Positions 1,075-50,848 of a stretch of DNA of 64,000 nt are shown in pieces. Position numbers and translations under genes: made by a program. The first letter of the stretch is position 1. Each line of letters starts with the position of its first letter. The notes under the pieces are model-generated. The model saw only the letters and a list, made by a program, of their open reading frames with translations. It was not told the origin of the DNA and made no database searches. Where the stretch lies: the NCBI GenBank assembly GCA_025284135.1, contig GCA_025284135.1_3646.1; one strand, 5' to 3'. Source of the DNA: a phage.

Positions 1075-1084
1075 GGAGCGCTTA

Positions 1085-1298: not shown

Positions 1299-1349
1299 CT
1301 GCAATACGATGTGATGCAATTTTAACTTACGAGGTCTACAGGTAATGCT

Positions 1350-1592
1350 ATGTTTAAGGTTAAGCTCGTTTTTCGTTCCATGAATGAGGATTATTTAGAA
1401 GATGAAGGTGAATTTCGTGCACTGGATGATGCAATAGATTTTGCCAACGACTTAGCTTGTATGAATACTGGTTATGGGTTATGCTGTTGGGATGGTGGTG
1501 TTCAGATCGGTGATAGCAAGATCTTCTACTTCTACCCTGAGCCTGATAACAAACAAATTAAGTATGTTTTATTTATTTGTGCTTTACAATGA
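1350..1592 (+). CDS. hypothetical small protein (80 aa)
   Basis: ORF downstream of promoter-like element; no known motif. Confidence 0.4.
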   Translation: MFKVKLVFRSMNEDYLEDEGEFRALDDAIDFANDLACMNTGYGLCCWDGGVQIGDSKIFYFYPEPDNKQIKYVLFICALQ

Positions 1593-1639
1593 GGTTGTTT
1601 TCGTGTATCATGATGAATATCCAATTTAAAGATGAATTT

Positions 1640-1875
1640 GATGGCTTTATCTCCGGATGCTTTGAAACAGGGTTCGGAGAAGGCTGAGTTCCCCTTAGAG
1701 GGCTTGATAGTGCACCACACTTAAAATGGTAGGGGGCAGCCAGCACATGACGATGTGACCCCAGCCAACCTGTAACAAGGTCGAGCCGAAGCGCGGGTAA
1801 TAGGCCTCTGGTAACCCACTTGTTGGGTCTTGCTGGTCCAGGACGCTGGACAAGTCGCAGGGAATATCTCCCTGC
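1640..1875 (+). other. GC-rich noncoding element B (candidate structured RNA or cis element), homologous to 128-365
   Basis: Same ordered motifs as element A (ATAGTGCACCACAC, ACATG, GTAACA, GAGCCGAAGCG, AGGCC); minus-strand ORFs here look compositional only. Confidence 0.35.
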
Positions 1876-1882
1876 GGCGAAC

Positions 1883-1911
1883 TTGACAATCAGTATTTGC
1901 TATGATAAAAT
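1883..1911 (+). promoter_or_regulatory. sigma70-like promoter TTGACA-N17-TAAAAT
   Basis: Consensus -35, 17-nt spacer, TAAAAT -10, about 30 nt upstream of ATG 1940. Confidence 0.5.
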
Positions 1912-1939
1912 CCACCTATCACGTGATAATGGAGGAAAC

Positions 1940-2278
1940 ATGGCGGATACAACTAAAAAGCGTCGCCGTAGAGGCAGACCTCTGAAAGAGGAGTCCAACG
2001 CCATTCAGCTAGAGAAGAACATCCTTGATATGAAGGAATCTTTTATAGCGATGGTTCCAGAAGCTCACAAAGTTTTAAGAGAGCTGATGTTGGACCCGAA
2101 AACCAAACAAAATATTCGTCAAAGCATTGCAGAGTATGTTCTTGATAAGGCAGACCGAATGCAGGAAGAATATGATGAGATGTTTGGTGAAGAGGAAGAG
2201 GTGGTAGTGGAAGAGGCTGAAAAACCAGCACCTTTTATGCCATTTACTACAGAAATACAGCCTGTTAGCAATAGCTAA
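1940..2278 (+). CDS. small AT-hook-like protein with basic N-terminus and acidic C-terminus (start moved to ATG 1940)
   Basis: Track ORF 1820-2278 runs through the promoter; ATG 1940 has RBS GGAGG; N-terminus KKRRRRGRPLKEE contains an RGRP AT-hook-like core; C-terminus EEEEVVVEEAE. Confidence 0.5.
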   Translation: MADTTKKRRRRGRPLKEESNAIQLEKNILDMKESFIAMVPEAHKVLRELMLDPKTKQNIRQSIAEYVLDKADRMQEEYDEMFGEEEEVVVEEAEKPAPFMPFTTEIQPVSNS

Positions 2279-2287
2279 AATATTTTC

Positions 2288-2316
2288 TTGACAAACTTTG
2301 CTTAACAGTGTAATAT
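2288..2316 (+). promoter_or_regulatory. sigma70-like promoter TTGACA-N17-TAATAT upstream of tRNA cluster
   Basis: Consensus -35 with 17-nt spacer and TAATAT -10 about 60 nt before the first tRNA. Confidence 0.5.
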
Positions 2317-2374
2317 TGTAAACATGGTCTCCCACCTTTTCTGGCGGCTCAGGTGTAAAAGAAAGCCACCCAGT

Positions 2375-2449
2375 GCCCTGTTAGCTTAGTGGATAAAGCA
2401 GCGGCCTTCTAAGCCGTTGACACTGGTTCGAGTCCAGTACGGGGTGCCA
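2375..2449 (+). tRNA. tRNA-Arg (anticodon TCT)
   Basis: Hand-folded cloverleaf: acceptor GCCCTGT/ACGGGGT (2 GU pairs), anticodon stem GCGGC/GCCGT with loop CTTCTAA, T-arm ACTGG-TTCGAGT-CCAGT, encoded CCA. Confidence 0.6.
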
Positions 2450-2579
2450 AGTTCTTTTTAATGTAGCTTACTTTAGCAGAGTAAATCTTCGGCAAGTGGC
2501 GGTAACCACTTTACCGATACCTCATAGTTAGTGGTGAGAACACTAGCTATTTTAAAAAGAATTTAAATATTAGTATTTA

Positions 2580-2667
2580 GGTGAGTTAATTCCGTAGGGG
2601 TAGCGGGGCAGACTGTAAATCTGTTATCATTGCGATTCGGGTGGTTCGACTCCATCACTCACCACCA
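2580..2667 (+). tRNA. tRNA-Tyr (anticodon GTA), long variable arm
   Basis: Acceptor GGTGAGT/ACTCACC, anticodon loop CTGTAAA, T-loop TTCGACT, encoded CCA. Confidence 0.6.
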
Positions 2668-2781
2668 AATTTATATTTTTAGATGCATAAATCATACAGA
2701 TAATGGCATTGATATTTATCGTCGTTTATACTAGTCACTAACTGCTCGAAAATCAGTGTCATTATCAGTATTGTTTATAAA

Positions 2782-2872
2782 AGAGGGTAGGGAGCAATGG
2801 TGCTCAAGCGGTCTTGAAAACCGTCCCGTTGAGGATGACTCGATGATGGTTCGATTCCATTACCCTCTGCCA
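2782..2872 (+). tRNA. tRNA-Ser (anticodon TGA), long variable arm
   Basis: Acceptor AGAGGGT/ACCCTCT, anticodon loop CTTGAAA, T-arm GATGG-TTCGATT-CCATT, encoded CCA. Confidence 0.6.
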
Positions 2873-2970
2873 TATTGTTGACCTTGTAATTAAGCGAAAG
2901 CCGGAAGCAGAACCGGATTATCAAATGTTACAGTCGTCATCGCCGACTAGCAACATGGTCAACATGCTGA

Positions 2971-3067
2971 GCTAGGTAAGCCCTTTGGCAAGGGCGAGGA
3001 TTTTTAATCCTGAAAATAGACGAGGTAGTCGTTGAATACATAGATGGTTCGATTCCATCACCTAGCA
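2971..3067 (+). tRNA. atypical tRNA-like gene (about 97 nt; anticodon-loop candidate TTTTTAA = UUU/Lys; about 30-nt variable region)
   Basis: Perfect acceptor pairing GCTAGGT/ACCTAGC, D-arm GCCC-TTTGGCAA-GGGC, T-arm GATGG-TTCGATT-CCATC, but only a 4-bp anticodon stem and an extra hairpin ACGA-GGTAG-TCGT; no encoded CCA. Confidence 0.35.
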
Positions 3068-3074
3068 CCTTTTT

Positions 3075-3150
3075 GCTGATGTAGCACAATTGGTAGTGCA
3101 ATTGATTTGTAATCAATAGGTTGCAGGTTCAAGTCCTGCCATCAGCACCA
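3075..3150 (+). tRNA. tRNA-Thr (anticodon TGT)
   Basis: Acceptor GCTGATG/CATCAGC, D-stem GCAC/GTGC, anticodon stem ATTGA/TCAAT with loop TTTGTAA, T-arm GCAGG-TTCAAGT-CCTGC, encoded CCA. Confidence 0.7.
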
Positions 3151-3151
3151 A

Positions 3152-3226
3152 GGCCCTGTAGCTGGAAGGTTCAAGCAAGCGACTCATAATCGCCAGACGG
3201 TGGTTCAATTCCACCCAGGGCCACCA
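3152..3226 (+). tRNA. tRNA-Met or Ile2 (anticodon CAT)
   Basis: Acceptor GGCCCTG/CAGGGCC, anticodon loop CTCATAA, T-arm GGTGG-TTCAATT-CCACC, encoded CCA. Confidence 0.65.
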
Positions 3227-3237
3227 AATAGTAGATA

Positions 3238-3314
3238 CTCCGCGTAGCTCAGCTTGGTAGAGCGCCTGATTTGGGATCAGGAGGTCGAGTGTTCGAATCA
3301 CTCCGTGGAGACCA
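3238..3314 (+). tRNA. tRNA-Pro (anticodon TGG)
   Basis: Acceptor CTCCGCG/CGTGGAG (1 GU), D-arm TAGCTCAGCTTGGTAGAGCG, anticodon stem CCTGA/TCAGG with loop TTTGGGA, T-loop TTCGAAT, encoded CCA. Confidence 0.65.
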
Positions 3315-3360
3315 CTTTCAGTTATACTTTAAACATATATAAACAAAAGGAACCTTTAAA

Positions 3361-3630
3361 ATGTATACACTTAAAATTGTAGAGCGTGTGAATCCAACCC
3401 ATACCGTAGATTTTCGTGACGATTTCAATCCTCTGGCTGTAAATCTTCGAGAGTCATATCATGAACTCAGCTGCGATGCAGTGGTGGTCTTTTTTGAAGA
3501 CAACTCTGAAGGGGCGGTAGCTTGTGTTGTTGATAGTGAGCAGAAGTTTTATATTTACAGAGATGTAGATGCATACTTGATGAATGAAAATGCAGTTACT
3601 GTTAGAATCATCCACCGAGTGCCTCGATAA
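3361..3630 (+). CDS. hypothetical protein (89 aa)
   Basis: ORF with AAGGA RBS; followed by a terminator-like hairpin. Confidence 0.45.
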   Translation: MYTLKIVERVNPTHTVDFRDDFNPLAVNLRESYHELSCDAVVVFFEDNSEGAVACVVDSEQKFYIYRDVDAYLMNENAVTVRIIHRVPR

Positions 3631-3686
3631 GTATTAGTCTCCTTTTAGTTAGTTTCGATCTATTTAGGTTACTCAATTTTAACCCG

Positions 3687-3717
3687 CCCCGTTAGCTGTA
3701 TAGCTGCGGGGTTTTTT
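3687..3717 (+). terminator. rho-independent terminator-like hairpin
   Basis: CCCCG..CGGGG stem followed by TTTTTT. Confidence 0.45.
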
Positions 3718-3735
3718 CGTTTCTGGAGCCTTAAA

Positions 3736-4134
3736 ATGATTTCAGGTTTAACATGGCTTAGTAGGTATAGAGGGATCATAAAAGGTTTAGTTTTTGCAGC
3801 GGCTATAGGTACAGCTTATCTTGGGGCCGTGTATTGGTTTAACTCTAAGCTCAATGATGCTTATCAGGAAGGTGTGTCAGCAACAGAGTTAAAGTGGGAA
3901 CGGATCCTTGACCAACAACAAAAGCAGGCCGACAAAATTAAAATGGGCCACGCAGAGGAGGTTAAAAACCTTGAAAAATCCCTTTCTGATCTACAGGATA
4001 AATTAAATATAGCTGAGAGGGCAGGTAGAGAAAAGCAGATTATCTACCTCCAATCACCTGAAGGTAAGAAGTCAACACTTCCTGATCAGCTTATAGATAT
4101 TTATAATGAGAGTATCAATCAGGAGGATCGATGA
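3736..4134 (+). CDS. i-spanin-like protein (N-terminal TM helix plus periplasmic coiled coil)
   Basis: N-terminal hydrophobic segment GLVFAAAIGTAYLGAVYWF then a charged helical region; start of next gene overlaps its stop. Confidence 0.5.
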   Translation: MISGLTWLSRYRGIIKGLVFAAAIGTAYLGAVYWFNSKLNDAYQEGVSATELKWERILDQQQKQADKIKMGHAEEVKNLEKSLSDLQDKLNIAERAGREKQIIYLQSPEGKKSTLPDQLIDIYNESINQEDR

Positions 4135-4418
4135 GAGTTGCCACACTGTTTATTGCGTGCTTGTTATTATGTGGGTGTGCAACCAGCGTTGAGAGAGAAT
4201 ACAAGATTGACCCTCCGGATGTAGGAAGGTTGATTGTTAAACCCCCAGAAGGTGCCATGAAACCACCTGCTAAAGCTATGCCTTTGAAGAAAGGTGCGCC
4301 AGATGCAGTGAATTCTGGCATTATGAGGGATAATAATCTGTCTTGTAGCAATGATAGAGCTAAATTGATCATTTTGCAAGACTATATTAGAACACTGTTT
4401 CCAAAGGAGAGAGGTTAA
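4131..4418 (+). CDS. o-spanin-like lipoprotein (proline-rich)
   Basis: Signal-like N-terminus MRVATLFIACLLLCGCA with Cys at lipobox-like position; Pro-rich mature region (KPPEGAMKPPAKAMP); overlaps upstream gene by 4 nt. Confidence 0.5.
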   Translation: MRVATLFIACLLLCGCATSVEREYKIDPPDVGRLIVKPPEGAMKPPAKAMPLKKGAPDAVNSGIMRDNNLSCSNDRAKLIILQDYIRTLFPKERG

Positions 4419-5965
4419 TGTCTAAGATTTACGGACCGTGTTCTGAAAAGCAGAAGATGATCCTCGAAAACGATGCAGATATCTTGGTAATCGGCGGTGC
4501 CGCAGGGTCTGGCAAGTCGTTCCTCTTGCAGTTGATGCCACTTAAAATTATTGATGACCCCCACAGCTCTGTGGTTATGTTCCGAAGAACAACCCCACAG
4601 TTAGAAGGTGAGGGTGGACTATGGCCTAAAGCAGTAGCTATTTATAGTGATCTGCCTGAAAACATTAAGCCAAAGTTCAGAGAGAAGGATCATAAGTTCA
4701 TTTTTCCACGGTTTGATCCGAACACTGGTAAGTGGGATAGAAGCAAAAAGGGAGCTGTTGTAAAATACTGCCATATGGAGTATGTACAAGATAAGCTTAA
4801 CCATCAGGGGCTTGAGTACACCATGGTTTGCTTCGATGAGGGCACGCAGTTCGAATGGGAGCAGATAGACTACCTGATGTCTCGTCTGCGATCTCAGTCA
4901 AAGTATCCATCAAGAATGGTTATCAGCTGTAACCCCGATTCAGAACACATGCTTGCCAAACTGGTTAGATGGTGGTTGGACGATGAAGGGTATCCAGATC
5001 CGGAGAAATGCGGTAAGAAAAGATATTTTATCCGACGCGACGGTGAATTTATCTGGGGGGACTCTAAAGAAGAGTTGATAGAGAAATACACCACGGTTAA
5101 CGGACTTGGTGTGGAGATCAAGCCAAGACCGTTGTCATTCTCGTTTATAGGCGCAACAATATTCGATAATCCTGTTTGCTTAAGAGACAACCCAGAATAC
5201 CTTGCTTTCCTTGAAGGTCTGCCGGAACTGGAAAAAGCTCAGCTTCTTCATGGTAACTGGTTTGCAAAGCCTGAGGGCGCAAACTATTTTCAAAGATCTT
5301 TCCTTCGTGATGCCGATAGAGTACCCCTTGGATCAGTATCTTGCAGGGCATGGGATAAGGCAGGAACCGAGAGAACTTCCGGTAATAAATTTCCTGACTT
5401 TACCGCCAGTGTTAAGGTAAGTAAAGATAGCGACGGCTTTTATTACCTGTCCGGTGATTATTGTCCTGAGAACGTGGATGACGGGAGGTATTCCACAGGC
5501 CTGGAAGGCAAGTTCTGTAAAAAGGCTGGTGAACGAGATGTGATCATCAGGAAACAGGCGCAGTTTGATGGTGATGATTGTATAATCGTATTCTCTGTGG
5601 ACCCCGGTCAGGCAGGTAAGAGTGAGTTCTTAACCTCATCCAGATCCTTGCTCGCAGAAGGGTTCAGGGTTGAAGAAGACCCAATGCCTTCCAACAAGTC
5701 TAAACTGACAAGGTTCTCACCTTTTGCCAATCTTGCCCAACAAGGGATGGTGAGGATTGTAAAATCCAGTTTCCATCCTGATACTCTGGAAGCATTTCTG
5801 ACCGAACTTGAAAAATTCAACGGGGAAAGATCAACATTTAACAGAAAAGACGACTGGGCCGACTGTGTAGCTTCTGCGATTAATTTCCTGGAGAAAGAGG
5901 AGGTAGCACTTCCTTGTGTGATTCCATCAATCTCCTCACCTTCTATGTTCAAGCGTTTTATCTAA
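4418..5965 (+). CDS. terL: terminase large subunit
   Basis: Walker A GGAAGSGKS, Walker B-like MVCFDEGTQ, C-terminal nuclease-like region with acidic residues (VFSVDPGQAGKSEF); sits immediately before the portal gene. Confidence 0.85.
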   Translation: MSKIYGPCSEKQKMILENDADILVIGGAAGSGKSFLLQLMPLKIIDDPHSSVVMFRRTTPQLEGEGGLWPKAVAIYSDLPENIKPKFREKDHKFIFPRFDPNTGKWDRSKKGAVVKYCHMEYVQDKLNHQGLEYTMVCFDEGTQFEWEQIDYLMSRLRSQSKYPSRMVISCNPDSEHMLAKLVRWWLDDEGYPDPEKCGKKRYFIRRDGEFIWGDSKEELIEKYTTVNGLGVEIKPRPLSFSFIGATIFDNPVCLRDNPEYLAFLEGLPELEKAQLLHGNWFAKPEGANYFQRSFLRDADRVPLGSVSCRAWDKAGTERTSGNKFPDFTASVKVSKDSDGFYYLSGDYCPENVDDGRYSTGLEGKFCKKAGERDVIIRKQAQFDGDDCIIVFSVDPGQAGKSEFLTSSRSLLAEGFRVEEDPMPSNKSKLTRFSPFANLAQQGMVRIVKSSFHPDTLEAFLTELEKFNGERSTFNRKDDWADCVASAINFLEKEEVALPCVIPSISSPSMFKRFI

Positions 5966-37228: not shown

Positions 37229-37915
37229 ATGGCAGAGATTAAGTCGGATGTTAACCACATCCACACTCTGCCAGATTTTGTTCAGGGAGGTCTTGACTAC
37301 CTACCTGGAGATTTTCTGGCTGAGAAGGTTAATTTAGTCACATTCTTAACCGTATACCTTAAAAGGTTGGAGGATGTTGATAAGATGCTGGTAGGTTTGG
37401 CTGAAGGAAGATTGCTTAACAATGCCAGCGGAAGATACCTTGACGAAGTTGGTAATCAACTTGGTATTCTTAGGAATGGACTTTCAGATGCTGATTTTCG
37501 TGCCACACTAATTATTCAGCAGGCCGCAGCATCAAGGGGCGGGACTCGCGAAGATGTCATCTCCACCTTGCGACAATTGTTCGGAAGAGACAATTTCGAT
37601 ACGTGGAAAGGAGACAACTTCAGGTTTGACATAAATATTAGAAAAACTTGCTTTGACATATTGCAGTCTATCGATCAGATCTTAGATATGCTACCATTAC
37701 CTTGTCATTTGCGTCTTACAGAATCGCAAGGGCAAGCTTTTGGTTTTGAAGGGGACTCTACAGCTCTTGGCTTCGGATCAGTGTGGGAAGAAAACCAATT
37801 CGGAGTTGGTGGGCTGGCTACTTTGCTATATGTTCCTGACGTAAGACCTGATTGGGACACCACAACCATTTATTGTGAAAGTATTACAGTAAACGCAACT
37901 AGACAGGAGGGTTAA
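37229..37915 (+). CDS. tail-fibre module protein (228 aa)
   Basis: Position; start of next gene overlaps its stop. Confidence 0.35.
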   Translation: MAEIKSDVNHIHTLPDFVQGGLDYLPGDFLAEKVNLVTFLTVYLKRLEDVDKMLVGLAEGRLLNNASGRYLDEVGNQLGILRNGLSDADFRATLIIQQAAASRGGTREDVISTLRQLFGRDNFDTWKGDNFRFDINIRKTCFDILQSIDQILDMLPLPCHLRLTESQGQAFGFEGDSTALGFGSVWEENQFGVGGLATLLYVPDVRPDWDTTTIYCESITVNATRQEG

Positions 37916-39987
37916 TGGCAACAGCTGTTTTTAAACCTTACCGTGATTACTCTACAATGGCTGCACAGTTTCATTACCGAACAGTTCAGGATACTGCCGT
38001 TCCTGGTAGGGATTATAATCATGTTGAGGGCGATGTAACTATCCCAATTGGGGCAACCAGTATTGAAATCCCAGTGGAAATTGTTGACAAATTACCCAAC
38101 AGGTTACCAAGAAGCTTCTTTATGGAGTTTTCATCAAAATCTCAAGGGGTGATGATTGGGACACAAAGGGCAAAATGTACAATAGTTTCAGATGAGAATC
38201 TTGACAGGATATCTTGGGATACTGTTGAGGAGAGAATGTTTCACCCAAGATATTGGGTTACAAATACTCAGCAGACTGAAAGTACCTGTATTGTTGCAGA
38301 TGACAACTGTTGTATTAACCGTTTAGTGTCAAGAACATATGGAGGTATGGCTGGGTGCATTTGGGAAACAGTTGACAAGTATGACCATTTCGGTATTGGG
38401 TTTGATGATCACTATGAGATGAGAAACACCAAGCTTTGGTTCAGAATGTCAATAACCAATGCCAGCAACTTCTCCACCCCTGAAAAGATGATTATGACTG
38501 TAGACCTTGTCGATGGCACAATCATCTATGTTCCTTTAGCTCAATATGCTGTCAGCATCTCAGAGGATAAGAATGTTGCAGAAATTCATATTGATTTTGA
38601 GGACTGCGTCGGGATGGACCAGAACAACAACATGATGGGTGTTGATCCTCGGCAGGTTAGAAGGATTTTAATACCACTCATGCCTAAAGACTGGGTAAGT
38701 AATAGCACAGACCCGAGAACGGAAAATGTAGAGTGTGAGTTGCGCCTAGATTTGCTTCAGCCAGACACAGGCTGGAAAATGATGCAACTTAACAATATTC
38801 AGGTGAGAGAGCACGACGTTGGGATCTGCACCGCATATGACGATATGTGGAACGTATCCCCTTTAAGGGTGTTGAACAATATCAAGCGTCTGGGCTATAC
38901 CGGAACCATAAACCATTATGTTGGTATGAGTCATTATTATGACTACACATGGTCAGGAACTCAATGGTCTATAAACAGAACAGGAGCGCTAAACGCTGCA
39001 GCTTATAAATGGCATGATGATTTTATGTACAATGCCAAACGACATAACTTCGACGTTATGCAATCTGTAAGTTTTGAGCTTTTCAGCGATGCCTGCCCGT
39101 TGGAATGGACCCAAAGAGACTGGAACGATAACTACGCTAAAACAGGGTATACACCTTGTAGCTACCTCCTGTCTCCAACCATTGAAGAGGGTATGAATTT
39201 CCTTACTGCAGTATTTAAGAATTTTGCATCAGCCGCTATGAGAAACAACCTGCCAGTGATTATGCAGGTTGGTGAACCGTGGTGGTGGTACAATACCGAT
39301 ACTCGTAGACCTTGTATTTATGATTACCCTACAAAACAGGCGTTTTATGATGAGACAGGCGAGTATGCATTAGATATTGGGACTATTGACGATCCTAAAA
39401 CTGGCGGTGTTTACGATAAGTATGTAGCATTTTGTCGTGGTAAGCTTGGCGCTCGTATTGCGGCTATTTCAAAGGCAATAAAGGCACACGCTGCATCAGC
39501 TCAGATGACAGCTCTGCTGTTTTTCCCAACCATTATGGAAACCGAGCTTACGCAAAAGCTTAACCTTGCTGACCAATATAAAAAGGAAGCAGGTGCTCTT
39601 GATTTCTTCTGCACCGAGTGCTACGATTGGGTGATGCAGGGAGGTATTGAAAAGGCAAAAGAGTCTGTAAACATACCTATCGTTAAGTTAGGTTGGCAAC
39701 CGTCTGAAATACAATACCTTGCAGGGTTCGTTCCTAGTAAAGAGCTTGCTCCGGTATATGGCTACGACCCAACCAGGAATTACCAAGAATTTTTATGGAG
39801 ATGTATTTGCGGAAACATGGCAACTATAGAGTATAGATACCCTGAGGTAAAACAGTATGTGTGGGCATACCCGCAAGTAATGTCTGACAGCATCACTGTT
39901 ACCGCTAGAGATTCTACCGTGCTTCATATGGGGCAGGTTGCTCTGAAAGGGTATGTAGAAGATGTTGTCCCGCCAGACTTCTCATAA
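37915..39987 (+). CDS. tail-fibre module protein (690 aa), Trp/Tyr-rich, possible enzymatic domain
   Basis: Position; composition; no confident motif. Confidence 0.4.
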   Translation: MATAVFKPYRDYSTMAAQFHYRTVQDTAVPGRDYNHVEGDVTIPIGATSIEIPVEIVDKLPNRLPRSFFMEFSSKSQGVMIGTQRAKCTIVSDENLDRISWDTVEERMFHPRYWVTNTQQTESTCIVADDNCCINRLVSRTYGGMAGCIWETVDKYDHFGIGFDDHYEMRNTKLWFRMSITNASNFSTPEKMIMTVDLVDGTIIYVPLAQYAVSISEDKNVAEIHIDFEDCVGMDQNNNMMGVDPRQVRRILIPLMPKDWVSNSTDPRTENVECELRLDLLQPDTGWKMMQLNNIQVREHDVGICTAYDDMWNVSPLRVLNNIKRLGYTGTINHYVGMSHYYDYTWSGTQWSINRTGALNAAAYKWHDDFMYNAKRHNFDVMQSVSFELFSDACPLEWTQRDWNDNYAKTGYTPCSYLLSPTIEEGMNFLTAVFKNFASAAMRNNLPVIMQVGEPWWWYNTDTRRPCIYDYPTKQAFYDETGEYALDIGTIDDPKTGGVYDKYVAFCRGKLGARIAAISKAIKAHAASAQMTALLFFPTIMETELTQKLNLADQYKKEAGALDFFCTECYDWVMQGGIEKAKESVNIPIVKLGWQPSEIQYLAGFVPSKELAPVYGYDPTRNYQEFLWRCICGNMATIEYRYPEVKQYVWAYPQVMSDSITVTARDSTVLHMGQVALKGYVEDVVPPDFS

Positions 39988-41965: not shown

Positions 41966-42054
41966 ACAAAGGTCAGAACGGAAAGGACTCCGTTCTTGCA
42001 TTTTGTTCTCTAAAGTGTTAAAATAGTCCTAAGGAATTTTCTCAGGAGAACGTG

Positions 42055-43098
42055 ATGACTAAACCAGTTATCCCTCTTGATATTTGGGCCAATCAGGATG
42101 TTGTGCTTGAAAATACGGGAGAGTTGAATAAGTCTCAACCAAAAAAAGAAGATAGATTGAAAGGTTGGGATATGACACAAAGAATGGCATGTGAAGTTGT
42201 TAACTTTGAACTTCACATGCTTTCTGCGTGGTTGAAGCATTTAACAGAAGATGTTGTCCCGGGATGGGATAATAGATTCTTAAGGGTCACTAATAATCTA
42301 GCAGACGTTCCAGACAAAGCTGCTGCACGTCAAGTTCTCAATGTATACTCGCCTGAAGAAATGGACGATCTATATGTTGACAAGTCTGGAGACATAATGA
42401 CTCAGACTCAAACTTTAGGTCTTCAAAGAATCGAGTTTGCATCTGCGTCAACAGACAATGCGGCAATATATACCACCATAACTCCAGACAAGACGACAAT
42501 GGACTTCTGGATTATGGACAACATCGGCGGTGCTGACGGCACAGACCTTGATGATCCTTCTCACCAAATAGACGGGTTCCGTTGGAGATTTCAACCTTCT
42601 GGTGGTCAGCCTGTGTTTTCGGCTATGAAGCTCAATGCTATAACTGCCAACCGTGCAAGACTGGCTATCCAAGGAAATCTTGAATGCAACGATGCAAAAA
42701 GTTCCTCTGCAAATGCCAATGCGGTCACGATACCAAGAGCCACTGTTAACGGACAACAGTCCTGCGGAAGCGCTCAAATAGGTGAAAGAGTTGATTGTAA
42801 CGATGAAACCGTTAGGGGCCAATATGCAACAGTCGGTGGAAGAAACGTGGTCCGTAGGGTAAATGGTAGTAGCGCAGACAGTAGTGGTAACCTTACTATT
42901 CCTATGCCTAGTAGGGGTGTTGAAGATGTAAGGATAGCAAACCGTTTCAGAACCACCTACAGAGAATCAAGAGTATACCCTGGGCATGTAATGTGCTCCG
43001 GCAATTACGCCTATAAACACCCGTATCAGGGCGACTATTGGACTGGAGCCATTCAAAAATTTGTAAATGGTCAATGGATCACTATATCTTATGCTTAA
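42055..43098 (+). CDS. tail fibre / receptor-binding protein (paralog 2) (start moved to ATG 42055)
   Basis: Paralogous to 40000-41040 over full length; C-terminal FVNGQWITISYA. Confidence 0.6.
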   Translation: MTKPVIPLDIWANQDVVLENTGELNKSQPKKEDRLKGWDMTQRMACEVVNFELHMLSAWLKHLTEDVVPGWDNRFLRVTNNLADVPDKAAARQVLNVYSPEEMDDLYVDKSGDIMTQTQTLGLQRIEFASASTDNAAIYTTITPDKTTMDFWIMDNIGGADGTDLDDPSHQIDGFRWRFQPSGGQPVFSAMKLNAITANRARLAIQGNLECNDAKSSSANANAVTIPRATVNGQQSCGSAQIGERVDCNDETVRGQYATVGGRNVVRRVNGSSADSSGNLTIPMPSRGVEDVRIANRFRTTYRESRVYPGHVMCSGNYAYKHPYQGDYWTGAIQKFVNGQWITISYA

Positions 43099-43109
43099 AA
43101 AGAGGGTAA

Positions 43110-43376
43110 ATGAAACTAACTCAGTTTTTATGGGGACTGGTTGCGGCATCTGATGACCCTACGAAAGTGTCCCAATCTAAGCTATGGTCGAATATAGGCA
43201 TGGCGGTGATGACTGGGGTGTTTATTCATATGGGGTATAATGATACGCTTCCGGAATGGTATGCGTGGATATACGCACCTTCAGTAGCCTGCCCCCAGCT
43301 TATTAGCAAATTCATCTCGCTCCGGTGGGGTTGCCAGCACCCTGACCACGTTAAAAACGAAGAGCAAAAAGCTTAA
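43110..43376 (+). CDS. small membrane protein (holin candidate)
   Basis: Two hydrophobic segments (LTQFLWGLVAA; IGMAVMTGVFIHMGY), charged C-terminus; 88 aa. Confidence 0.35.
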   Translation: MKLTQFLWGLVAASDDPTKVSQSKLWSNIGMAVMTGVFIHMGYNDTLPEWYAWIYAPSVACPQLISKFISLRWGCQHPDHVKNEEQKA

Positions 43377-43385
43377 GGAGAAATC

Positions 43386-45131
43386 ATGGCGCAAGACATG
43401 ACAAGCTTTGAGCAGGCGGTAGATCAAGTAATTGTTGATTCTGAACGTTTGCACTTGGTTGTCAACGGTAACGCTGTGGATGAAGTTGTCGTAGAGGATG
43501 GGACCACCATCCCTACGGTACGAAAAGCCATGCTTGACAACCTTTATTTTAAAACGCCACCGATCCCTTGGGCGTATGGTGCATCCACAACAGTTTTTAA
43601 CCAGCTGTATGAGTTTAAAGGGGACACAGGCCCTCAATGGTGGTACGCTCCCGCAGCATCAAAATCTAACCCGGTTAGAATGCCAGCAGATCCTTCACAA
43701 TCTCCAAACTGGAGATTATACACCGACTCTGCAGTAATGGCAAAATACTACGCAAAACTTAACAGCCCAAGGTTCGAAGGTGACCCGCGAGTACCTACAC
43801 CTCCAATGGACGATAAGTCTGAGTCTATAGCAAACACAGAGTTTGTTGTTGACTATGTGGATAGCATATTTAAAGCCATGGAGGGGATGAAAGTTACTGT
43901 AGGGTCTTTGGTGGTAAAAGGTCTTACAGAACTAGCTAACACCATAGTTGGGGGCACCCTTACCTTACATGGGCCTGTTAATGGAGCAGATTCTACTGCA
44001 CGCTTCAGGAACCTAATCCTCACGGCAAATACTTCTACACTTACTTTTGCGTGGAGCGATCCTAAGCATGCAGACTGGAGAAGCACAGAGCTGCAACCTC
44101 ATGAAGTGTCCACCCACAGGGTTATAGCTGACACTATAACCTCTGGGAAACCAGTGGCTAATAATAACGATGTACATTTTGATGGTCTGGGTAATAACTT
44201 TTTTGACTACGTGTACATTCGTGGTAATGCCATGAAGGCAGCAACCGAACCTACATTGCAGGTCGATGGGACCGCCAGGGTTAAGAACCTTGAGGTGACA
44301 GGCACCGTTACAGGGATAACCTACTCTGTCGATGGTACCATGATCTACCCTAGCTATATTGAAAGCACGGGTGATGCATTGATAAATGGCGATTTAGAGG
44401 TTGGTGGGTCTGTAGTTATTCGAGGTACAGCCTCTATCCAAAACATAGCTCTGAACACTCTGAGAGTCAATGAGCGTGCAACTTTTGAAGGGGAAGGGCT
44501 TACAGCTAACAAAGGCATAATTACCGAGCTGACAACAACTACTTTAACTGCAACAACTGCAAACTCTGAAAACTGCAACGTTACCAGAAACTTGCAGGTA
44601 AACGGCGATGTTAGCTTAAATGACAACGGCACAGGAACAACACGCCTTCATAACCTTGAAATATCCGGCACAGTGACTGGGTGGCTGCCAGACTTCTCTA
44701 ATGTCAATTTTGTTTGTAATGGTATTAACTCCAGCGGTAAGATAACCACCTCTCAAGGAATTGAGGCTGGTAAAACCATCACTGCCCCTACTTTCCACGC
44801 AGGAAAAGTAGACTTTGACTTAGAGGAGGTTGACGCATCTAGTGGGATATGGACACCTAACGGGCAGGCCAGTATGTATGTTGTCCACGCTAAAGGGGAT
44901 TTTACAATAGGGCAGTGGCCTGGGACATCAGCGGAAGATAAACCTTATCCATTCACTGCAGTTATCTATGTCATTCAGGATGCCGTAGGTCACAACGTGA
45001 CTTTGCACGATAAGTATGCTATCCTGTCGGCAACACCTGTTATTAACAACAAGGCTAACAGTGTTACCCTGCTGCAATTAACATATTGTGGTGTTGGTGA
45101 TATCGTAGACGTGGTAATTGCACAACGTTAA
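43386..45131 (+). CDS. tail fibre-like protein (581 aa)
   Basis: Gly/Thr/Asn/Val-rich beta-type repeats typical of fibre shafts; position. Confidence 0.5.
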   Translation: MAQDMTSFEQAVDQVIVDSERLHLVVNGNAVDEVVVEDGTTIPTVRKAMLDNLYFKTPPIPWAYGASTTVFNQLYEFKGDTGPQWWYAPAASKSNPVRMPADPSQSPNWRLYTDSAVMAKYYAKLNSPRFEGDPRVPTPPMDDKSESIANTEFVVDYVDSIFKAMEGMKVTVGSLVVKGLTELANTIVGGTLTLHGPVNGADSTARFRNLILTANTSTLTFAWSDPKHADWRSTELQPHEVSTHRVIADTITSGKPVANNNDVHFDGLGNNFFDYVYIRGNAMKAATEPTLQVDGTARVKNLEVTGTVTGITYSVDGTMIYPSYIESTGDALINGDLEVGGSVVIRGTASIQNIALNTLRVNERATFEGEGLTANKGIITELTTTTLTATTANSENCNVTRNLQVNGDVSLNDNGTGTTRLHNLEISGTVTGWLPDFSNVNFVCNGINSSGKITTSQGIEAGKTITAPTFHAGKVDFDLEEVDASSGIWTPNGQASMYVVHAKGDFTIGQWPGTSAEDKPYPFTAVIYVIQDAVGHNVTLHDKYAILSATPVINNKANSVTLLQLTYCGVGDIVDVVIAQR

Positions 45132-45138
45132 TATATCT

Positions 45139-45168
45139 AACCGCTCCTGACGGGGCGGTTTTCTTATC
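45139..45168 (+). terminator. terminator-like hairpin
   Basis: ACCGCTCC-TGAC-GGGGCGGT followed by TTTCTTATCT. Confidence 0.45.
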
Positions 45169-45179
45169 TGGAGAACACA

Positions 45180-48100
45180 ATGCTTCCAATCCCTTTGCTA
45201 AAACTTGGTCGTCATTTCCTCGATAAGAGGGGTGGAATTAAGGAACTTGCTGTTCTGTCATACCCAATAGACAACAGTGACGGTACAAGCACTACAGTAT
45301 CCTATGTAAACAGCTTGGCTATACTTTTTGACGATGGTCAACTTAATATTACGGGCTATAACAAGTTCGGGGAGTGTCGCACTGGGGATCGTAACCCTAT
45401 AAACTACCCGAGCGAAACAGCATGGAATGTTGATCATGTGTGGAGAGCAGACCGTGCGTTTGTGATCCGAACTTTTGATAATCAGTTTTTCTACATCGGC
45501 TGCACTGCAGGGCTTATTGGATCTGATGCTGCAGGTGGTAATGATGTTTGTGTAAGGGAGTGGACACCTCTTCCTGAACAGATTGTTAAAGGGTTGCACC
45601 TTGACACCCACCCGGAGCGCCTTGTTGAGGTGATGGGTGGTATTAACAACACTGTCTGGGTTATTGCAGAGGCAGAAGGCACAGGCATACTGAATCTGTA
45701 TGGGTCTGGTAACAACACCTACGGATCTTTGCATGTAGATAAAAATCAGCATGCAACCCCTGTAAAGATTGGTGAGACATCGGAAAATCCTGAAACAGGC
45801 CCTTGGAAAAACCCAAGCATTAACTGCGAGGTGCATGACAACTCTGTTATTTTCGGTGGTCCTAGAGGTTTCTGGATTGCTGGATACGACTTTCTGAGAA
45901 ATAACAGTAGAAACGACCTTGTTTGGCCTCCTGTGCAGATTACTCGTAACGATTTGAGAGGCATTCCTGCAGATGAGGAGTGGAAAGGGTTTATGTGTGG
46001 TCCTAACGGGGCAATAATCGCCACACAGAGGATGCACACACCCAATGACCAGCAGCTTGTTAACGTATTCTACGGGCAAGACGTCTGGGGAGATGACACA
46101 TGGCGTTCCTTAAATATCACCTACACCCATGAGGTGATAATGGCTCGTGGATACGGCACAAGTGGCATTTTCTTCAATAATGGCACTAAGCAGTATCGTG
46201 GATTCTCTCGCAACTTGTGCAATGATATTGGTGCACAATCTGCAAACAATAGCCCTAGGGCTAATTTTATCCACTATCGGGCTCTTGCTACAGCTAAATA
46301 TGTTGAGCAACGCCTGCCAGTTAGCTGGACAGAGAGTGTTTATTTCCAAGGCATTCACAGGGAAGGTTTCTTAGGAACCTTTACTGTTGTTAATGGCAAA
46401 CTTTGGTGGTCAGGCATCCCAAGGGGAAGTTTTGCAGGCTCTAACAACCTGTTTGGCGGCAGACTTAATAGTCAGGGGTTCACAGAGGTTCCTGAGAATT
46501 GGTATAAAAATGTCCCGGTAGATAGTTGGGGTGTTGATGATATTTTCGACGTTAACGGTGTTAGCAGCGTTAGCAATATTTACATTGGTGACACGGTCAA
46601 GATGAAATTGAAGCCTCAGCCAGAGGGGGCTACGTTCATTATTGACAAGATTGAACTGGTAAATGCTGCAGGCACGGTTGTTACAGATGCAAATTACCAA
46701 TTCTCCACCAACTGGAACCACGGCGGGGCCAACGAAGTTGTTGTTACCCAGTATAACAGAAATGTTAACAGACGTGGCCTGTACTCTGTAAAAATAACCT
46801 ATCATGACAAGCATGGCACAGGCAGAACTCACACAACAAGGACTTTGAACTGGAACACCATAGTTCCTGCGTATCCGTCCAACGGCAAGTGGCATACTGT
46901 CGGTAGAAACAAACAGTTCCATGTCAACAACACTGTATACTTTGGACTGAATGGGGCTCAGCCTGTAGTAGAAGGTGATACAGCATACATGGTCAGACTA
47001 CATAGAATGGATGCTGGATCAGCCACGTATGATGTTACCCAAGAGATTTATGATCAGCGACGAAATACTTACAACAACTTGGTGCAGACACAAGCTGTAT
47101 GGGAGTTCAATCCTAACGGCAGAGGTGGTAAAATGTTACAGGTTAACGAGCAAAACGGAACATCGTTGACTGTCCACGAACACCCAGACCCTTGGCGTGA
47201 TCCTGGAAAACCTAACCCAGGCGCTCGTACACTGAAAATTGTCAGCCATGATGTAGGATATTTCGGAATACGCTGGGAAGCTACAGTAAGATATGCCGAC
47301 GGGACGACAAACAATATTGGGATCACCCTTGGTGGCACTAGTGAGGATAACTCACTGAAAATTGCCTATACACCTAGAGGAATCTCTATTGATAGTATGG
47401 ATGTTGTTCGCAACGGTTACGGCGATGTGAATGTCAAAGTTACTCTTGGCGAACATCTTGGTGGGGAAAGGATCATCATGTATGCCTTTGATCATGACCC
47501 TCGCACCAATGGAACCTATGCAGACCAAGCATGGAGTTACCTGATAAGCGCACCTGAGCCAAATACTAAAGAATTCTACTATGGTATGAAACGAGATGTG
47601 TGCAAGAAAACAGGAACACATGACTGGATTGCTATCTGCGTTAAAGATGAACGAACAGCTTGGGATGAGCCTGTTAACAGATGGTTCATAGGAATTCCTG
47701 CCCGAAGTGATAAATATGTTGAAGAATATATTGTGTGCATGGGAGGCACCAACCTGAACTTGTGTTGGAACGAGGATGCAAACAAATACTCTGATTATGA
47801 CTATATGCGGGACTATTCTTGCAATCAGTGGTTTAACCAACCCGGATATGCTGATCGACAGGCAAGGGTGAATCCTGCAATCTTTACAGATACACAGGTT
47901 TTCTTGACAAAACAGGCTAACGAGGTTCAGACCTTCAAGAACAAATACGATCCTAACAAGTGGTTTTATAACTGTTATGGCGCATTTTTCTGGGGTCCTG
48001 GCGAACTACCTAATGGAGGATCTTGCTTCGAGGCTGCAACTTACGCCAGTGACAGGTTTATGGGGCAGGTTAAGAAGTACAAGATAATCCCCGGTCCTGA

Positions 48101-50804
48101 AACTCTGGGCAATGCCGTTGACCCTTATATCGTCATGACTGTGCTGAGATCAAACATGGATGGGACATCCATGTCTATGCAAGTTCCAGTAACAAACGGG
48201 TACAAACGTGTTGTGATGATCATTAAGTGCGACTTAATAGGTAAGCAAGTTCTTGCAGAAAACGGAACCTCAACACATTTATTCGAGACTGCTCTGCATT
48301 ATCAGTTTGCTGATTCACCTTTTGCAGGGGATAAGAGAATATCTGATACAGACAATGCTCGATGCAAGAAATTTATGCTTGGTGGTGGATGGTGGTGGTA
48401 TGAATTTGATTTAACAGACAAATTCACTGACACGTCTAAAGTGGTGACAGGGCTTCGTCTAGATCTTGGCGAAAACATGCACAAAAGTGTTTGTGATGGC
48501 ACCTACGGTGACCCAACAATCTACTTAAAGTATGTTTCTTTTGAGCACCCAGAGGATGTCGTTTATGGTCCAAAACTGAGACTGTTTGGCAATTGGATTG
48601 CTAAAGACAGGGCAGGTATGGGTAAAAAGGTAAGAGGGTTCTTAGTGGATGCAGGAACAGAAGACATGTTGGTTAATGCAGTGTGGCCTGAATTACCGGG
48701 AACTCAGTGGGACAACTCTGCTAAATCTATAAACTGGTTCAACATTCACAGAGCTATGTGGACAACTAACTGCTACCTGTGGAAAGAGTTGAATGACGGC
48801 GCTTTCGGGTTTACAGGTGGCAGAAGAATGGCAATCATCTGCTGGACAACGCTGCAAAGATGTTATGACCATGACTACGAGATTGGAGGTAGGGCATGGA
48901 AAAATATTAGAGATAGAATCATAACTAACTTCGCAGACCCTAATGGTGGTGGAGCGTATGGCTTCGACTGCAGCAGGCTCATCCATTTGAACGGGTCCTC
49001 TGCATATAAGAAAGAGGGTTACTCTGGGTCCATGATTGAGTGGGGTCTGGTGAAAGATGCTCGCGTATTGATGGGTCAACAACTTGCTGCTGCAATAGGA
49101 CCGAACGCAGTACAATCTGTTAAACCAGCGTGGTTCGATATCCCATTATGGTCCTCTGGAACACCAGGAACTGCTGTGATCAACCCTACCACTGGGGATC
49201 TGGAAATCTCTTGGGAGGACTTGAAGCAGGTCGGTGGTTGGGACAAAACAGGGTATCAGGTTCAATGGTGGAGGGCTGATGGATCTTTAGCCGCTGATGA
49301 GTTTGTTAGGGACAATTTCTACACCATGTCCTCTGCAAAAGCACAACAACTGTTCGGTCAGGCTACCCCGTCAACGATCACCATGTCCATGTGCTGTAAA
49401 GACAACAGGACTGGAGCTTTGGGGCCAAGGGTTGCTAAAGTTTTCTCAGGTATCAAATGGAATCTTCCTGTTCAAAGTGTTGCATGGAAGCAAATAGGTG
49501 ATAACAAGCTGCTGGTTACTCCTGCTTGTCAGTTCAACGCAACTCTTAACGTTGATCCTGCTGTTGCGGCAAACTCAGCTAAAGCTTCTGACTTCTCTGT
49601 GTCTAACACTGCTATGGCAGATGTGAGGAAGATTGACACGCTGAACGCCAGAATTACCTGTAAAAACACTTATGGCACATTCCAGATCATCAACAACTTC
49701 ACAGACGCGGACTCTAAGGTAGTGAGGACAGCAAGCCAGACTCTGAGTTTAGGAACTCTGGCCTATGCGGCCCTGATCACTGAACAGTCAGCAACACTCC
49801 AAGGGGGTGGTGTAGGCAAGTCCATTACAACACCTGTGTGGAAGCCAAATGAGTGGGTTGTGTTTGATTTGACTGTAGACTTCTCCAGCGATAATAACTG
49901 GACATGGGTAAGGAATTGTTTGTCACAGTTGATGGGCGGTCCAAGCTCCATTAGCGATAGTCACGACTCTACTGACCCGAGTGTGTTCCAGGTAGGCAAA
50001 ACTCACCCGGAGACTGGAGCAACGTTGCCTGACAGGAAGTATGCTTTGGTTTGCATCTCTTACGGGAAGGCAGATGTCACCTTCTCAGGGACACACACTT
50101 ATAACGGAACCTACAATTTCTCAAGGAAGTATAGTCTCAAAGCGGGAAACATTGTAGACGAGGTTGGTGTGCTGTATAATCCTGGCAACGGCATAGGGAT
50201 TGTGGGTGGTAAACTGCAGATGCAGGAACCTTCTATTACCCCTTCCAATGTGTCTGGGATTAGAAAGACTTGGGAAAGCAGTAATACCAACATTGCAACA
50301 GTGGATGCTACCACAGGGCTGGTAACATTTAAAGCTACTGGGAATGTCACCATAAAGTTTGTAGTTACTGATGATGCAGGGCGCAAAACGTCTTCAACAT
50401 CGTTTACTGTCAGACAGATGGCACCTCAGTGGTTTATTTGGGAAGGAAATCCTCTTGACGGGACTTACCCTAGACCTGCAGGAACGTCCAATATGAGGGT
50501 CTTTACCGGTCCGGTCATGGACAATCCGACCACAACCACCAACCCTACATTTTTTGGTGCTTACATACCTGAAATTATTGGCCTACCAAGGAACCAGATA
50601 CAACTGCTTTTCGGAGCAGGTGTTGATGGCCTAGCCACTTTTGGGTACAGTGACAACATCGATGCAGCCAGAAGCTCGGGTTGGATTGGATTTAAGTTCC
50701 AGTGGAACCCTGGTGGTAGAACATTAGGTCTTGCAAGCATAGGTGTTATGCTACCTGGTAACCAGCAATACCATCTCGAAGCTTATACAAACTTCCCTAG
50801 TTAA
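45180..50804 (+). CDS. giant virion-associated protein (1874 aa) with C-terminal bacterial Ig-like (Big_2-type) domain
   Basis: Single uninterrupted ORF; C-terminal ITPSNVSGIRKTWESSNTNIATVDATTGLVTFKATGNVTIKFVVTDDAGRKTSSTSFTV matches Big_2 pattern; ends at a bidirectional terminator. Confidence 0.55.
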   Translation: MLPIPLLKLGRHFLDKRGGIKELAVLSYPIDNSDGTSTTVSYVNSLAILFDDGQLNITGYNKFGECRTGDRNPINYPSETAWNVDHVWRADRAFVIRTFDNQFFYIGCTAGLIGSDAAGGNDVCVREWTPLPEQIVKGLHLDTHPERLVEVMGGINNTVWVIAEAEGTGILNLYGSGNNTYGSLHVDKNQHATPVKIGETSENPETGPWKNPSINCEVHDNSVIFGGPRGFWIAGYDFLRNNSRNDLVWPPVQITRNDLRGIPADEEWKGFMCGPNGAIIATQRMHTPNDQQLVNVFYGQDVWGDDTWRSLNITYTHEVIMARGYGTSGIFFNNGTKQYRGFSRNLCNDIGAQSANNSPRANFIHYRALATAKYVEQRLPVSWTESVYFQGIHREGFLGTFTVVNGKLWWSGIPRGSFAGSNNLFGGRLNSQGFTEVPENWYKNVPVDSWGVDDIFDVNGVSSVSNIYIGDTVKMKLKPQPEGATFIIDKIELVNAAGTVVTDANYQFSTNWNHGGANEVVVTQYNRNVNRRGLYSVKITYHDKHGTGRTHTTRTLNWNTIVPAYPSNGKWHTVGRNKQFHVNNTVYFGLNGAQPVVEGDTAYMVRLHRMDAGSATYDVTQEIYDQRRNTYNNLVQTQAVWEFNPNGRGGKMLQVNEQNGTSLTVHEHPDPWRDPGKPNPGARTLKIVSHDVGYFGIRWEATVRYADGTTNNIGITLGGTSEDNSLKIAYTPRGISIDSMDVVRNGYGDVNVKVTLGEHLGGERIIMYAFDHDPRTNGTYADQAWSYLISAPEPNTKEFYYGMKRDVCKKTGTHDWIAICVKDERTAWDEPVNRWFIGIPARSDKYVEEYIVCMGGTNLNLCWNEDANKYSDYDYMRDYSCNQWFNQPGYADRQARVNPAIFTDTQVFLTKQANEVQTFKNKYDPNKWFYNCYGAFFWGPGELPNGGSCFEAATYASDRFMGQVKKYKIIPGPETLGNAVDPYIVMTVLRSNMDGTSMSMQVPVTNGYKRVVMIIKCDLIGKQVLAENGTSTHLFETALHYQFADSPFAGDKRISDTDNARCKKFMLGGGWWWYEFDLTDKFTDTSKVVTGLRLDLGENMHKSVCDGTYGDPTIYLKYVSFEHPEDVVYGPKLRLFGNWIAKDRAGMGKKVRGFLVDAGTEDMLVNAVWPELPGTQWDNSAKSINWFNIHRAMWTTNCYLWKELNDGAFGFTGGRRMAIICWTTLQRCYDHDYEIGGRAWKNIRDRIITNFADPNGGGAYGFDCSRLIHLNGSSAYKKEGYSGSMIEWGLVKDARVLMGQQLAAAIGPNAVQSVKPAWFDIPLWSSGTPGTAVINPTTGDLEISWEDLKQVGGWDKTGYQVQWWRADGSLAADEFVRDNFYTMSSAKAQQLFGQATPSTITMSMCCKDNRTGALGPRVAKVFSGIKWNLPVQSVAWKQIGDNKLLVTPACQFNATLNVDPAVAANSAKASDFSVSNTAMADVRKIDTLNARITCKNTYGTFQIINNFTDADSKVVRTASQTLSLGTLAYAALITEQSATLQGGGVGKSITTPVWKPNEWVVFDLTVDFSSDNNWTWVRNCLSQLMGGPSSISDSHDSTDPSVFQVGKTHPETGATLPDRKYALVCISYGKADVTFSGTHTYNGTYNFSRKYSLKAGNIVDEVGVLYNPGNGIGIVGGKLQMQEPSITPSNVSGIRKTWESSNTNIATVDATTGLVTFKATGNVTIKFVVTDDAGRKTSSTSFTVRQMAPQWFIWEGNPLDGTYPRPAGTSNMRVFTGPVMDNPTTTTNPTFFGAYIPEIIGLPRNQIQLLFGAGVDGLATFGYSDNIDAARSSGWIGFKFQWNPGGRTLGLASIGVMLPGNQQYHLEAYTNFPS

Positions 50805-50817
50805 CAGGAGGCAAATA

Positions 50818-50848
50818 AAAAGGGGCCGTTTGGCCCCTTTCTTTTTAT
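50818..50848. terminator. bidirectional rho-independent terminator between convergent transcription units
   Basis: AAAAAGGGGCC-GTTT-GGCCCCTTTCTTTTT; symmetric A/T flanks. Confidence 0.75.

Follow-up and report, generated by a model that had tools for sequence, protein, structure and literature searches.

A 1874-residue protein at the end of the tail module of an rV5-like phage: a probable accessory adhesin with an RCC1-like N-terminal domain

What does the largest gene of an rV5-like phage encode, and what would its product do on the virion? The question was taken up for one stretch of phage DNA of 64,000 nucleotides (NCBI GenBank assembly GCA_025284135.1, contig GCA_025284135.1_3646.1; hereafter the window), in which a single open reading frame (ORF) of 1874 codons, here called the giant gene, stands last in the tail module. 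On balance it is considered probable that the product is a virion adhesin, present in low copy and not essential, which would serve Vequintavirus as an accessory side fibre and modulate host range. This reading draws on published experiments with orthologs, on the domains that could be recognised in the protein and on the way in which the protein varies between phages.

The literature evidence refers to rV5, Bas54 and other orthologs, which are 90-97% identical to the window protein and lie at the same gene position. Mass spectrometry (MS) of rV5 virions detected the ortholog gp27 with 3 peptides and 9 spectra (3.1% coverage), and gp27 is listed among the MS-detected (structural) rV5 proteins (PMC11370258 Table S6). 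HIDEN-SEQ transposon mapping of Bas54 (MaxBurger) places bas54_0041 at 42024-47651 (10.1101/2025.11.20.689424), the same coordinates as the tblastn match of the window protein. On E. coli K-12, 281 of the 336 TA sites in bas54_0041 were disrupted and the gene was classed 'Non-essential', and the adjacent gene for a 581-residue fibre was disrupted at 1 of 123 sites and classed 'Essential' (10.1101/2025.11.20.689424). Insertions in bas54_0041 dropped from 30.9 reads per site on K-12 to 5.8 on a uropathogenic isolate (log2 fold change -2.23, adjusted p <1e-5, ∼4.7-fold); in the same comparison other fibre genes turned fully required or newly dispensable (10.1101/2025.11.20.689424). By these published data the phage can do without the ortholog on K-12 and draws some benefit from it on a clinical isolate. 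Read depth per site in bas54_0041 on K-12 was several-fold below that of downstream non-essential genes (10.1101/2025.11.20.689424), which may reflect a mild cost of disruption. Electron cryo-microscopy (cryo-EM) of Bas49 and Bas54 resolved 3 of nine annotated fibres; in one Vequintavirus fibre class, built from a helical bundle at the N-terminus, a pair of beta-helices and a head, the C-terminal head contacts density to which no model was fitted (PMC12143355). The 581-residue protein may belong to this class.

The giant gene itself is real and is evolving under purifying selection. Codon differences from five orthologs ran from 266:73 to 377:109 synonymous to non-synonymous (∼3.5-4 to 1), and the gene was found at full length in 108-110 phage records. 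In DNA comparisons over the whole gene, more than 100 E. coli myophages of Vequintavirus (rV5-like) were 90-93% identical. The gene is the largest in the genome and is conserved across Vequintavirus; the longest ORFs of the window after it encode 1381 and 1270 residues. A first-pass annotation, made from the letters of the window alone, had called it the largest ORF, rich in Gly, Asn, Thr and Trp, with antisense ORFs that are artefacts, and had proposed a comparison with related phages. Its coordinates were confirmed exactly, the composition agrees (G 9.9%, T 8.1%, N 7.4%, W 3.1%), and the comparison returned the Vequintavirus genomes above together with shorter relatives in three other genera. 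As for the antisense ORFs, 3 of the 4 longest are interrupted by stops in orthologs and were rejected as genes. The fourth (46410-46922, minus strand, 170 codons, ATG-initiated) is open in 5/5 orthologs checked; its substitutions are nearly all non-synonymous in its own frame (e.g. 54 vs 6) and synonymous in the sense frame, and it is therefore read as a by-product of the sense codons.

The protein belongs to PHROG 15684 (E = 0, 4370.6 bits, residues 1-1873 on profile positions 1-1877/1878), which is annotated 'unknown function'. In rV5 gp27 is described as a 'conserved hypothetical protein' of 1878 residues and 208 kDa with Big_2 (PMC3606486 Table S3), and the BASEL orthologs (e.g. bas54_0041, bas59_0040) carry the name 'lateral tail fiber protein with intimin domain'. 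These database names rest on a single Big_2 match. Between 15 and 20 GenBank records (MG0656xx) give C. jejuni as the host and bear the name 'Campylobacter phage'; over the giant gene they share 89-95% identity with E. coli Vequintaviruses, which suggests mislabelled or contaminant genomes. The coordinates of the gene, of its domains and of the flanking elements are collected in Table 1.

Table 1. Features of the giant gene, its protein and its flanks (window coordinates; aa, residues of the giant protein unless stated; AF2, AlphaFold2; pLDDT, AF2 per-residue confidence)
Feature	Position	Strand	Basis and remarks
581-aa fibre, C-terminal head, ∼105 aa	44814..45128	+	Gene 43386-45131; proposed docking site of the giant protein
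Terminator-like GC-rich hairpin AACCGCTCC-TGAC-GGGGCGGTT then TTTCTTATCT	45139..45160	+	Pattern scan and sequence; intergenic, after the 581-aa fibre gene and before the giant gene
Shine-Dalgarno GGAG	45170..45173	+	6 nt before ATG; read from sequence; kept in orthologs
Giant-gene coding sequence	45180..50804	+	ATG start; 1874 aa, 208 kDa, pI 6.4; ortholog of rV5 gp27/bas54_0041; PHROG 15684
N-terminal peptide MLPIPLLKLGRHFLDKRGG, aa 1-19	45180..45236	+	M1, P3, I4, P5 invariant across genera (alignment); proposed docking element
Probable RCC1-like beta-propeller, ∼aa 20-445	45237..46514	+	Most conserved part of the protein; Pfam, homolog and profile matches
∼Three beta-sandwich (FN3/Ig-like) domains, aa 448-845	46521..47714	+	AF2 and fold search
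Orphan core, first half, Cys/Trp/acid-rich, aa 846-960	47715..48059	+	Conservation 0.55-0.78; AF2 pLDDT <30
Variable beta-sandwich, aa 961-1125	48060..48554	+	AF2 pLDDT 74-87, 11 strands; apparently inserted in the orphan core
Orphan core, second half, aa 1126-1330	48555..49169	+	Motifs EDMLVNAVWP, NWFNxHRAMW, CWxxLxRCY, EGYSGSMIEWG; AF2 pLDDT 21-44
FN3-like beta-sandwich, aa 1331-1430	49170..49469	+	AF2 pLDDT 66-78; weak Pfam fn3, E 0.16
Two to three Ig-like beta-sandwiches, aa 1431-1665	49470..50174	+	Unrelated sequence instead in half of family clusters
Big_2 Ig-like domain ('intimin domain'), aa 1666-1750	50175..50429	+	Pfam match; AF2 pLDDT 79-92
C-terminal tip domain, aa 1751-1874	50430..50801	+	Two alleles in Vequintaviruses; proposed ligand-binding tip
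Bidirectional intrinsic-terminator-like hairpin AAAGGGGCC-GTTT-GGCCCCTTT	50819..50840	.	A-run and T-run flanks; late block meets minus-strand block

At the N-terminus, the four invariant residues of the short leading peptide are kept even among homologs of 25-32% identity. The region that follows aligns end to end with phAPEC8 gp086, GAP31_232 and SSE121 AFU63689. Pfam scored the window protein below threshold, with WD40_RLD over residues 45-199 (E 5e-5, 23 bits, cut-off 150) and RCC1_2 (E 0.07, 13.4 bits, cut-off 22), and homologs at 25-40% identity exceeded the PF00415 RCC1 cut-off (24.0-36.1 bits vs 21.7). A four-sequence profile matched the structures of UVR8 (E 4.7e-14), HERC1, RPGR, HERC2, RCC2 and RCC1; the UVR8 match covers 5-6 blades, but via one canonical blade of the profile. 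Seven blade-like repeats were read by eye, and conservation of the region is 70-80% in relatives that are only 50% identical overall. AF2 models were computed in two halves (residues 1-950 and 951-1874) from 16-17-sequence alignments, with mean pLDDT of 45.7 and 58.9, and were usable for some sandwich domains only. The model of the propeller region is poor, so that the support for the fold comes from sequence, by which the region is read as a probable RCC1-like propeller.

The N-terminal part also links the giant protein to a wider family. Outside Vequintavirus, residues 1-197 have counterparts in three further groups, each time in the last tail gene, and genes sharing the N-terminus hold this slot in Phapecoctavirus, Seunavirus and Justusliebigvirus. 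Identity over these residues is 39% for gp086 of phAPEC8 and other Phapecoctavirus ('tail protein', 891 residues) and ∼30% for three Seunavirus proteins, GAP31_232 of GAP31 (567 residues), AFU63689 of SSE121 (604 residues) and gp040 of PVP-SE1. In phi92, gp152 (202 residues) matches the two Big_2 domains of GAP31_232 at 57% identity, with the propeller deleted and the MYPIPL start kept; gp153 of the same phage was considered as a relative and rejected, there being no similarity. All five proteins share the MxPIP N-terminus and Big_2 with the giant protein, and all except that of phi92 share the propeller. As in the window, the homologs of the three genera follow a fibre gene with a conserved head, with a hairpin before them and a strand switch after them; they differ in length (202-891 residues vs 1874 here) and are without the ∼1150-residue central part, to which the orphan core belongs, and without the dimorphic tip. 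The shared N-terminus, the Ig-like domains and the common slot define a length-variable 'MxPIP, propeller, Ig-like domains' protein that ends the tail module, ranging from 202 (phi92 gp152) to 1976 residues. The first-pass annotation had thought both the size of the gene and its place as last late gene unusual; the size is so, and the place is the one that the homologs hold in the three other genera. A word-indexed homolog search with residues 1-450 returned 3 near-identical fragments and missed the known relatives.

Full-length members formed 15 clusters in a collection of 5.8 billion proteins. Twelve of these are 52-58% identical over residues 1-1430 with a different C-terminal third, and one is 40% identical throughout. 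Conservation falls from 70-80% at the N-terminus to 12-45% in the C-terminal third, with mosaic blocks at residues 450-750 and 950-1150. The first of these blocks is a different sequence in the most distant homolog. Within the second, the sandwich at residues 961-1125 exists as at least two sequence types in the family, and is 14-26% identical in P0008-P0015, where its flanks are 60-68% identical. The ∼125-residue tip falls into discrete alleles, with 38 phage records 95-99% identical to the window, 76 including rV5 at 61-64%, and none intermediate; the window carries the minority allele, swapped relative to P0001 and P0002. No match to the tip was found outside the giant gene, and a word-indexed search of the 5.8 billion proteins with a 130-residue query gave one weak fragment. 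As read from the alignments, the N- to C-terminal drop in conservation, the mosaic blocks and the discrete tip alleles are the usual pattern of tail-fibre variation. The ortholog of DrSchubert/Bas50 (MZ501060.1, locus 301-5927) is one base shorter, so that the frame shifts near codon 1790 and stops at 1818; this removes the tip domain in a phage isolated on K-12 and may be genuine or the result of a sequencing error.

Baseplate, short-fibre, chaperone and lateral-fibre genes precede the giant gene, which therefore closes the tail module, and both the coding strand and the GC skew switch 3' of it. The first-pass annotation had placed the gene at the end of the structural block between two terminators, and this description holds, the hairpins of Table 1 being assigned by pattern match and the downstream one being bidirectional by the pattern of its flanks. 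In relatives of 40-58% identity the gene order is kept, with an N4-sheath-like deacetylase fibre, short fibres, a chaperone, a fibre of ∼580 residues, the giant gene and the strand switch; the window order was also found for two giant-gene relatives on contigs of 123 kb and 142 kb. The upstream hairpin with its T-tract occupies the same intergenic slot in 6 BASEL Vequintaviruses, two distant metagenomic contigs, phAPEC8, GAP31, SSE121 and phi92, with folding energies of -13 to -18 kcal/mol and stems of unrelated sequence between lineages. Position and structure are thus conserved and sequence is not, which argues for function. A terminator is annotated at this position in phAPEC8, and we propose that the hairpin attenuates transcription into the giant gene. 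Hairpins equivalent to the downstream one were found 3' of homologs in other phages.

The fibre encoded directly upstream has counterparts in phAPEC8 gp087, phi92 gp151 and GAP31_231. The four are 48-56% identical over their C-terminal ∼100 residues; their N-terminal and central portions show no relationship, and some of the fibres carry Tail_spike_N and collagen repeats. The head is their sole conserved part and is a mobile module. It occurs in 385 phage records vs 213 for the giant-gene family, by which strict co-occurrence of the two was rejected. The records with the head domain include jumbo-phage 'long tail fiber proximal subunit' genes and phiTE.

Towards the C-terminus the protein consists of Ig-like domains. 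Big_2 (PF02368), which the first-pass annotation had recognised near the C-terminus, was matched at residues 1681-1732 (E 4e-8 to 1.5e-9, 33.5-38.1 bits vs a curated cut-off of 22.8) and is the only domain of the protein above a Pfam threshold. In fold searches the tandem arrays resembled cadherins, S-layer proteins, LigB, intimin, lambda gpV-C, T5 pb6 and N4 gp65; sequence searches of the PDB, whether by the protein or by the family profile, produced marginal Ig matches only. Membership of the intimin/invasin family was rejected, NCBIfam intimin_all scoring 22.2 bits vs a cut-off of 1400 over 39 residues inside Big_2. The PDB match to intimin had E 0.004 over 48 residues, and LysM and the barrel domain were absent from the Pfam results. 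'Intimin' in the database name means the Big_2 fold only.

Such domains raise the possibility, which we hold to be unlikely, that the protein is a Hoc-like decoration, an Ig chain on capsid, neck or tail that adheres weakly and non-specifically to mucus or carbohydrate. Ig-like/Big_2 domains of this kind occur on lambda gpV, on T5 pb6, on a Hoc-like protein and on proteins that decorate capsids; the category of phrog_215, 'structural protein with Ig domain', is head and packaging; phi92 gp151, the fibre before the homologous gene, has been likened to the head spike of phage Pa223; and dispensability of the ortholog on K-12 would fit as well. The gene, however, lies in the tail-fibre module at a distance from the head genes, its length far exceeds that of known decoration proteins, the depletion of the ortholog was host-specific in a well-mixed culture assay, and the fall in conservation towards discrete tip alleles points to a specific ligand.

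The orphan core, rich in Cys and with invariant Trp, Tyr, Asp and Glu, spans residues 846-960 and 1126-1330 and had no Pfam or PDB match. Pfam searches of overlapping segments at E up to 10 left residues 450-1650 empty except for the weak fn3 match and a spurious LptD match, and an exhaustive HMMER search of 1.84 billion representative proteins with a profile of residues 301-1450 returned the family itself and two fragments only. The cut at residue 950 probably split the core, which would explain the very low AF2 confidence on both sides. The domain scan and segment-wise structure prediction advised in the first-pass annotation recovered the RCC1-like repeats, the FN3/Ig-like domains and Big_2 and left the core without a match. 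Its second half is a candidate glycan-binding or catalytic domain.

That the protein is an enzyme-bearing fibre, with a new glycan hydrolase, lyase or esterase against capsule or exopolysaccharide in the core and Ig domains as spacers, is improbable. The core is the best conserved part outside the propeller, its invariant Trp/Tyr, Asp/Glu, one His and paired Cys are a composition typical of carbohydrate-active sites, and other fibres of the locus carry glycosidase or deacetylase domains. No depolymerase domain (pectate-lyase-like beta-helix, sialidase, glycoside hydrolase, SGNH, deacetylase, hydrolase, lyase or esterase) was found in Pfam, NCBIfam, PHROGs, PDB sequence-profile, exhaustive HMMER or fold searches, and the models are without a beta-helix, the core having probably been cut by the split at residue 950. 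Since the core matches no family, a small opening for enzymatic activity remains. Where the first-pass annotation had offered a large adhesin, a depolymerase-bearing fibre or another virion-surface protein, the domains, the place at the end of the tail module, the weak MS signal and the transposon data favour an adhesin or surface protein, and the depolymerase is left without a domain to carry it.

Least probable is a canonical homotrimeric long tail fibre, which the name in the BASEL annotation, the trimeric fibres encoded next to it and the thin 70-nm fibres seen on rV5 would suggest: Pfam and PHROGs scans, which detect fibre and trimerisation modules in neighbours and related fibres, found no coiled coil, collagen repeat, triple beta-helix, beta-helix, N-terminal adaptor (Tail_spike_N) or S74/Tfa-dependent tip, the recognisable domains (propeller, FN3, Ig, Big_2) all close on a single chain, and hhalign found no internal repeats among 14 putative domains (best probability 13%).

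Several observations weigh against the accessory side fibre as well. Coverage of rV5 gp27 by MS is thin, and the peptide inspected from the published data is non-tryptic. Depletion of bas54_0041 on the clinical isolate was partial. In supplementary file 9 of that study the sheet Data S6 is titled 'K-12_vs_CFE303', the command line and data files name 311, and the table is duplicated, so that the strain behind the Bas54 fibre phenotypes is ambiguous. The giant protein is not among the fibres fitted in Bas49/Bas54 (PMC12143355). Many records with the proposed docking head are without the giant-gene family, which makes the co-occurrence one-sided, and AF2 confidence is low over about half of the protein.

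We infer the virion location, docking partner, oligomeric state, ligand and attenuating role of the hairpin; docking, a monomeric state and a glycan ligand are proposed on the strength of gene adjacency, co-conservation of modules, domain types and the unassigned cryo-EM density. As an accessory side fibre, the protein would be anchored to the tail-fibre network by its N-terminal module (MLPIP and the RCC1-like propeller), most likely at the conserved C-terminal head of the essential 581-residue fibre. The other ∼1400 residues would form a long flexible chain around the Trp/acid-rich core, with some ten beta-sandwich, FN3 and Ig-like domains that fold independently, ending in the exchangeable 125-residue tip. 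The variable insert and the tip may bind a strain-specific surface structure, probably a glycan. Such binding would raise adsorption on some E. coli strains and leave the protein dispensable on K-12, and the upstream hairpin would hold expression below that of the essential fibre genes. A bolder form of this scheme is doubtful: a non-trimeric, single-chain 'tentacle' that docks via MxPIP on the head of the upstream fibre, changes length domain by domain and carries in its core, with the swappable sandwich inserted there, a new glycan-binding or -cleaving fold, which would also account for the density in Bas49/Bas54.

Databases already list the gene, and that it can be dispensed with has been published before; the known kind to which it belongs is that of phage accessory fibres and adhesins built of Ig-like domains. 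The orthologs rV5 gp27 and those of BASEL match it over the full length, and the window tip differs, being 48-76% identical to the rV5-type tip. The lambda gpV C-terminal domain, T5 pb6, T4 Hoc-like proteins and the N4 gp65 sheath display one to few Ig domains on a core structural protein, whereas the giant protein is a separate protein of 208 kDa that combines a propeller and an orphan core with some ten sandwich domains. Unlike intimin/invasin, FdeC, LigB, B. anthracis Sap and SbsB/SbsC, it has no LysM, beta-barrel anchor, C-type lectin tip or signal peptide and is not a member of that group. With the propellers of UVR8, HERC1/2 RLD, RPGR and RCC1 it has the repeat signature in common through the family profile, the window protein alone falling below the Pfam thresholds. 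In phage W70, of another Vequintavirinae genus, RCC1-annotated virion proteins were found by MS; their genes lie elsewhere in the genome, and the comparison with them is one of annotation. A role in 'chromosome condensation', taken from RCC1-annotated phage proteins, was rejected as a name-based inference.

New in this analysis are the recognition of an RCC1-like domain at the N-terminus, the connection with shorter homologs that hold the corresponding slot in three other genera, the orphan status of the central 1150 residues by sequence, the variable domain inserted there, the pair of tip alleles, the conservation of the upstream hairpin and the docking hypothesis. Phages of the rV5 type belong to the most frequently isolated coliphages with a broad host range, and cocktails for therapy and for food safety make use of them; which gene builds which of their many fibres is still unclear (Maffei 2021; phi92 2026). 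If the protein is an optional adhesin with an exchangeable tip, it would be a natural handle for host-range engineering and, being dispensable on a K-12 production host, a safe site for payload insertion. The protein would gain in importance if it proved to have the single-chain architecture or to contain a new glycan-active fold.

Two further observations were made elsewhere in the window. An uninterrupted ORF of 515 residues at 4418-5965 equals in length the spliced large terminase of rV5, which is interrupted by an HNH endonuclease; the phage in the window may be without that insertion. The 690-residue fibre gene at 37915-39987 carries N4 non-contractile-sheath-protein domains (PF23844 and PF23845, according to precomputed annotation of its homologs), in line with published suggestions of a glycan receptor-binding module common to Vequintaviruses and N4.

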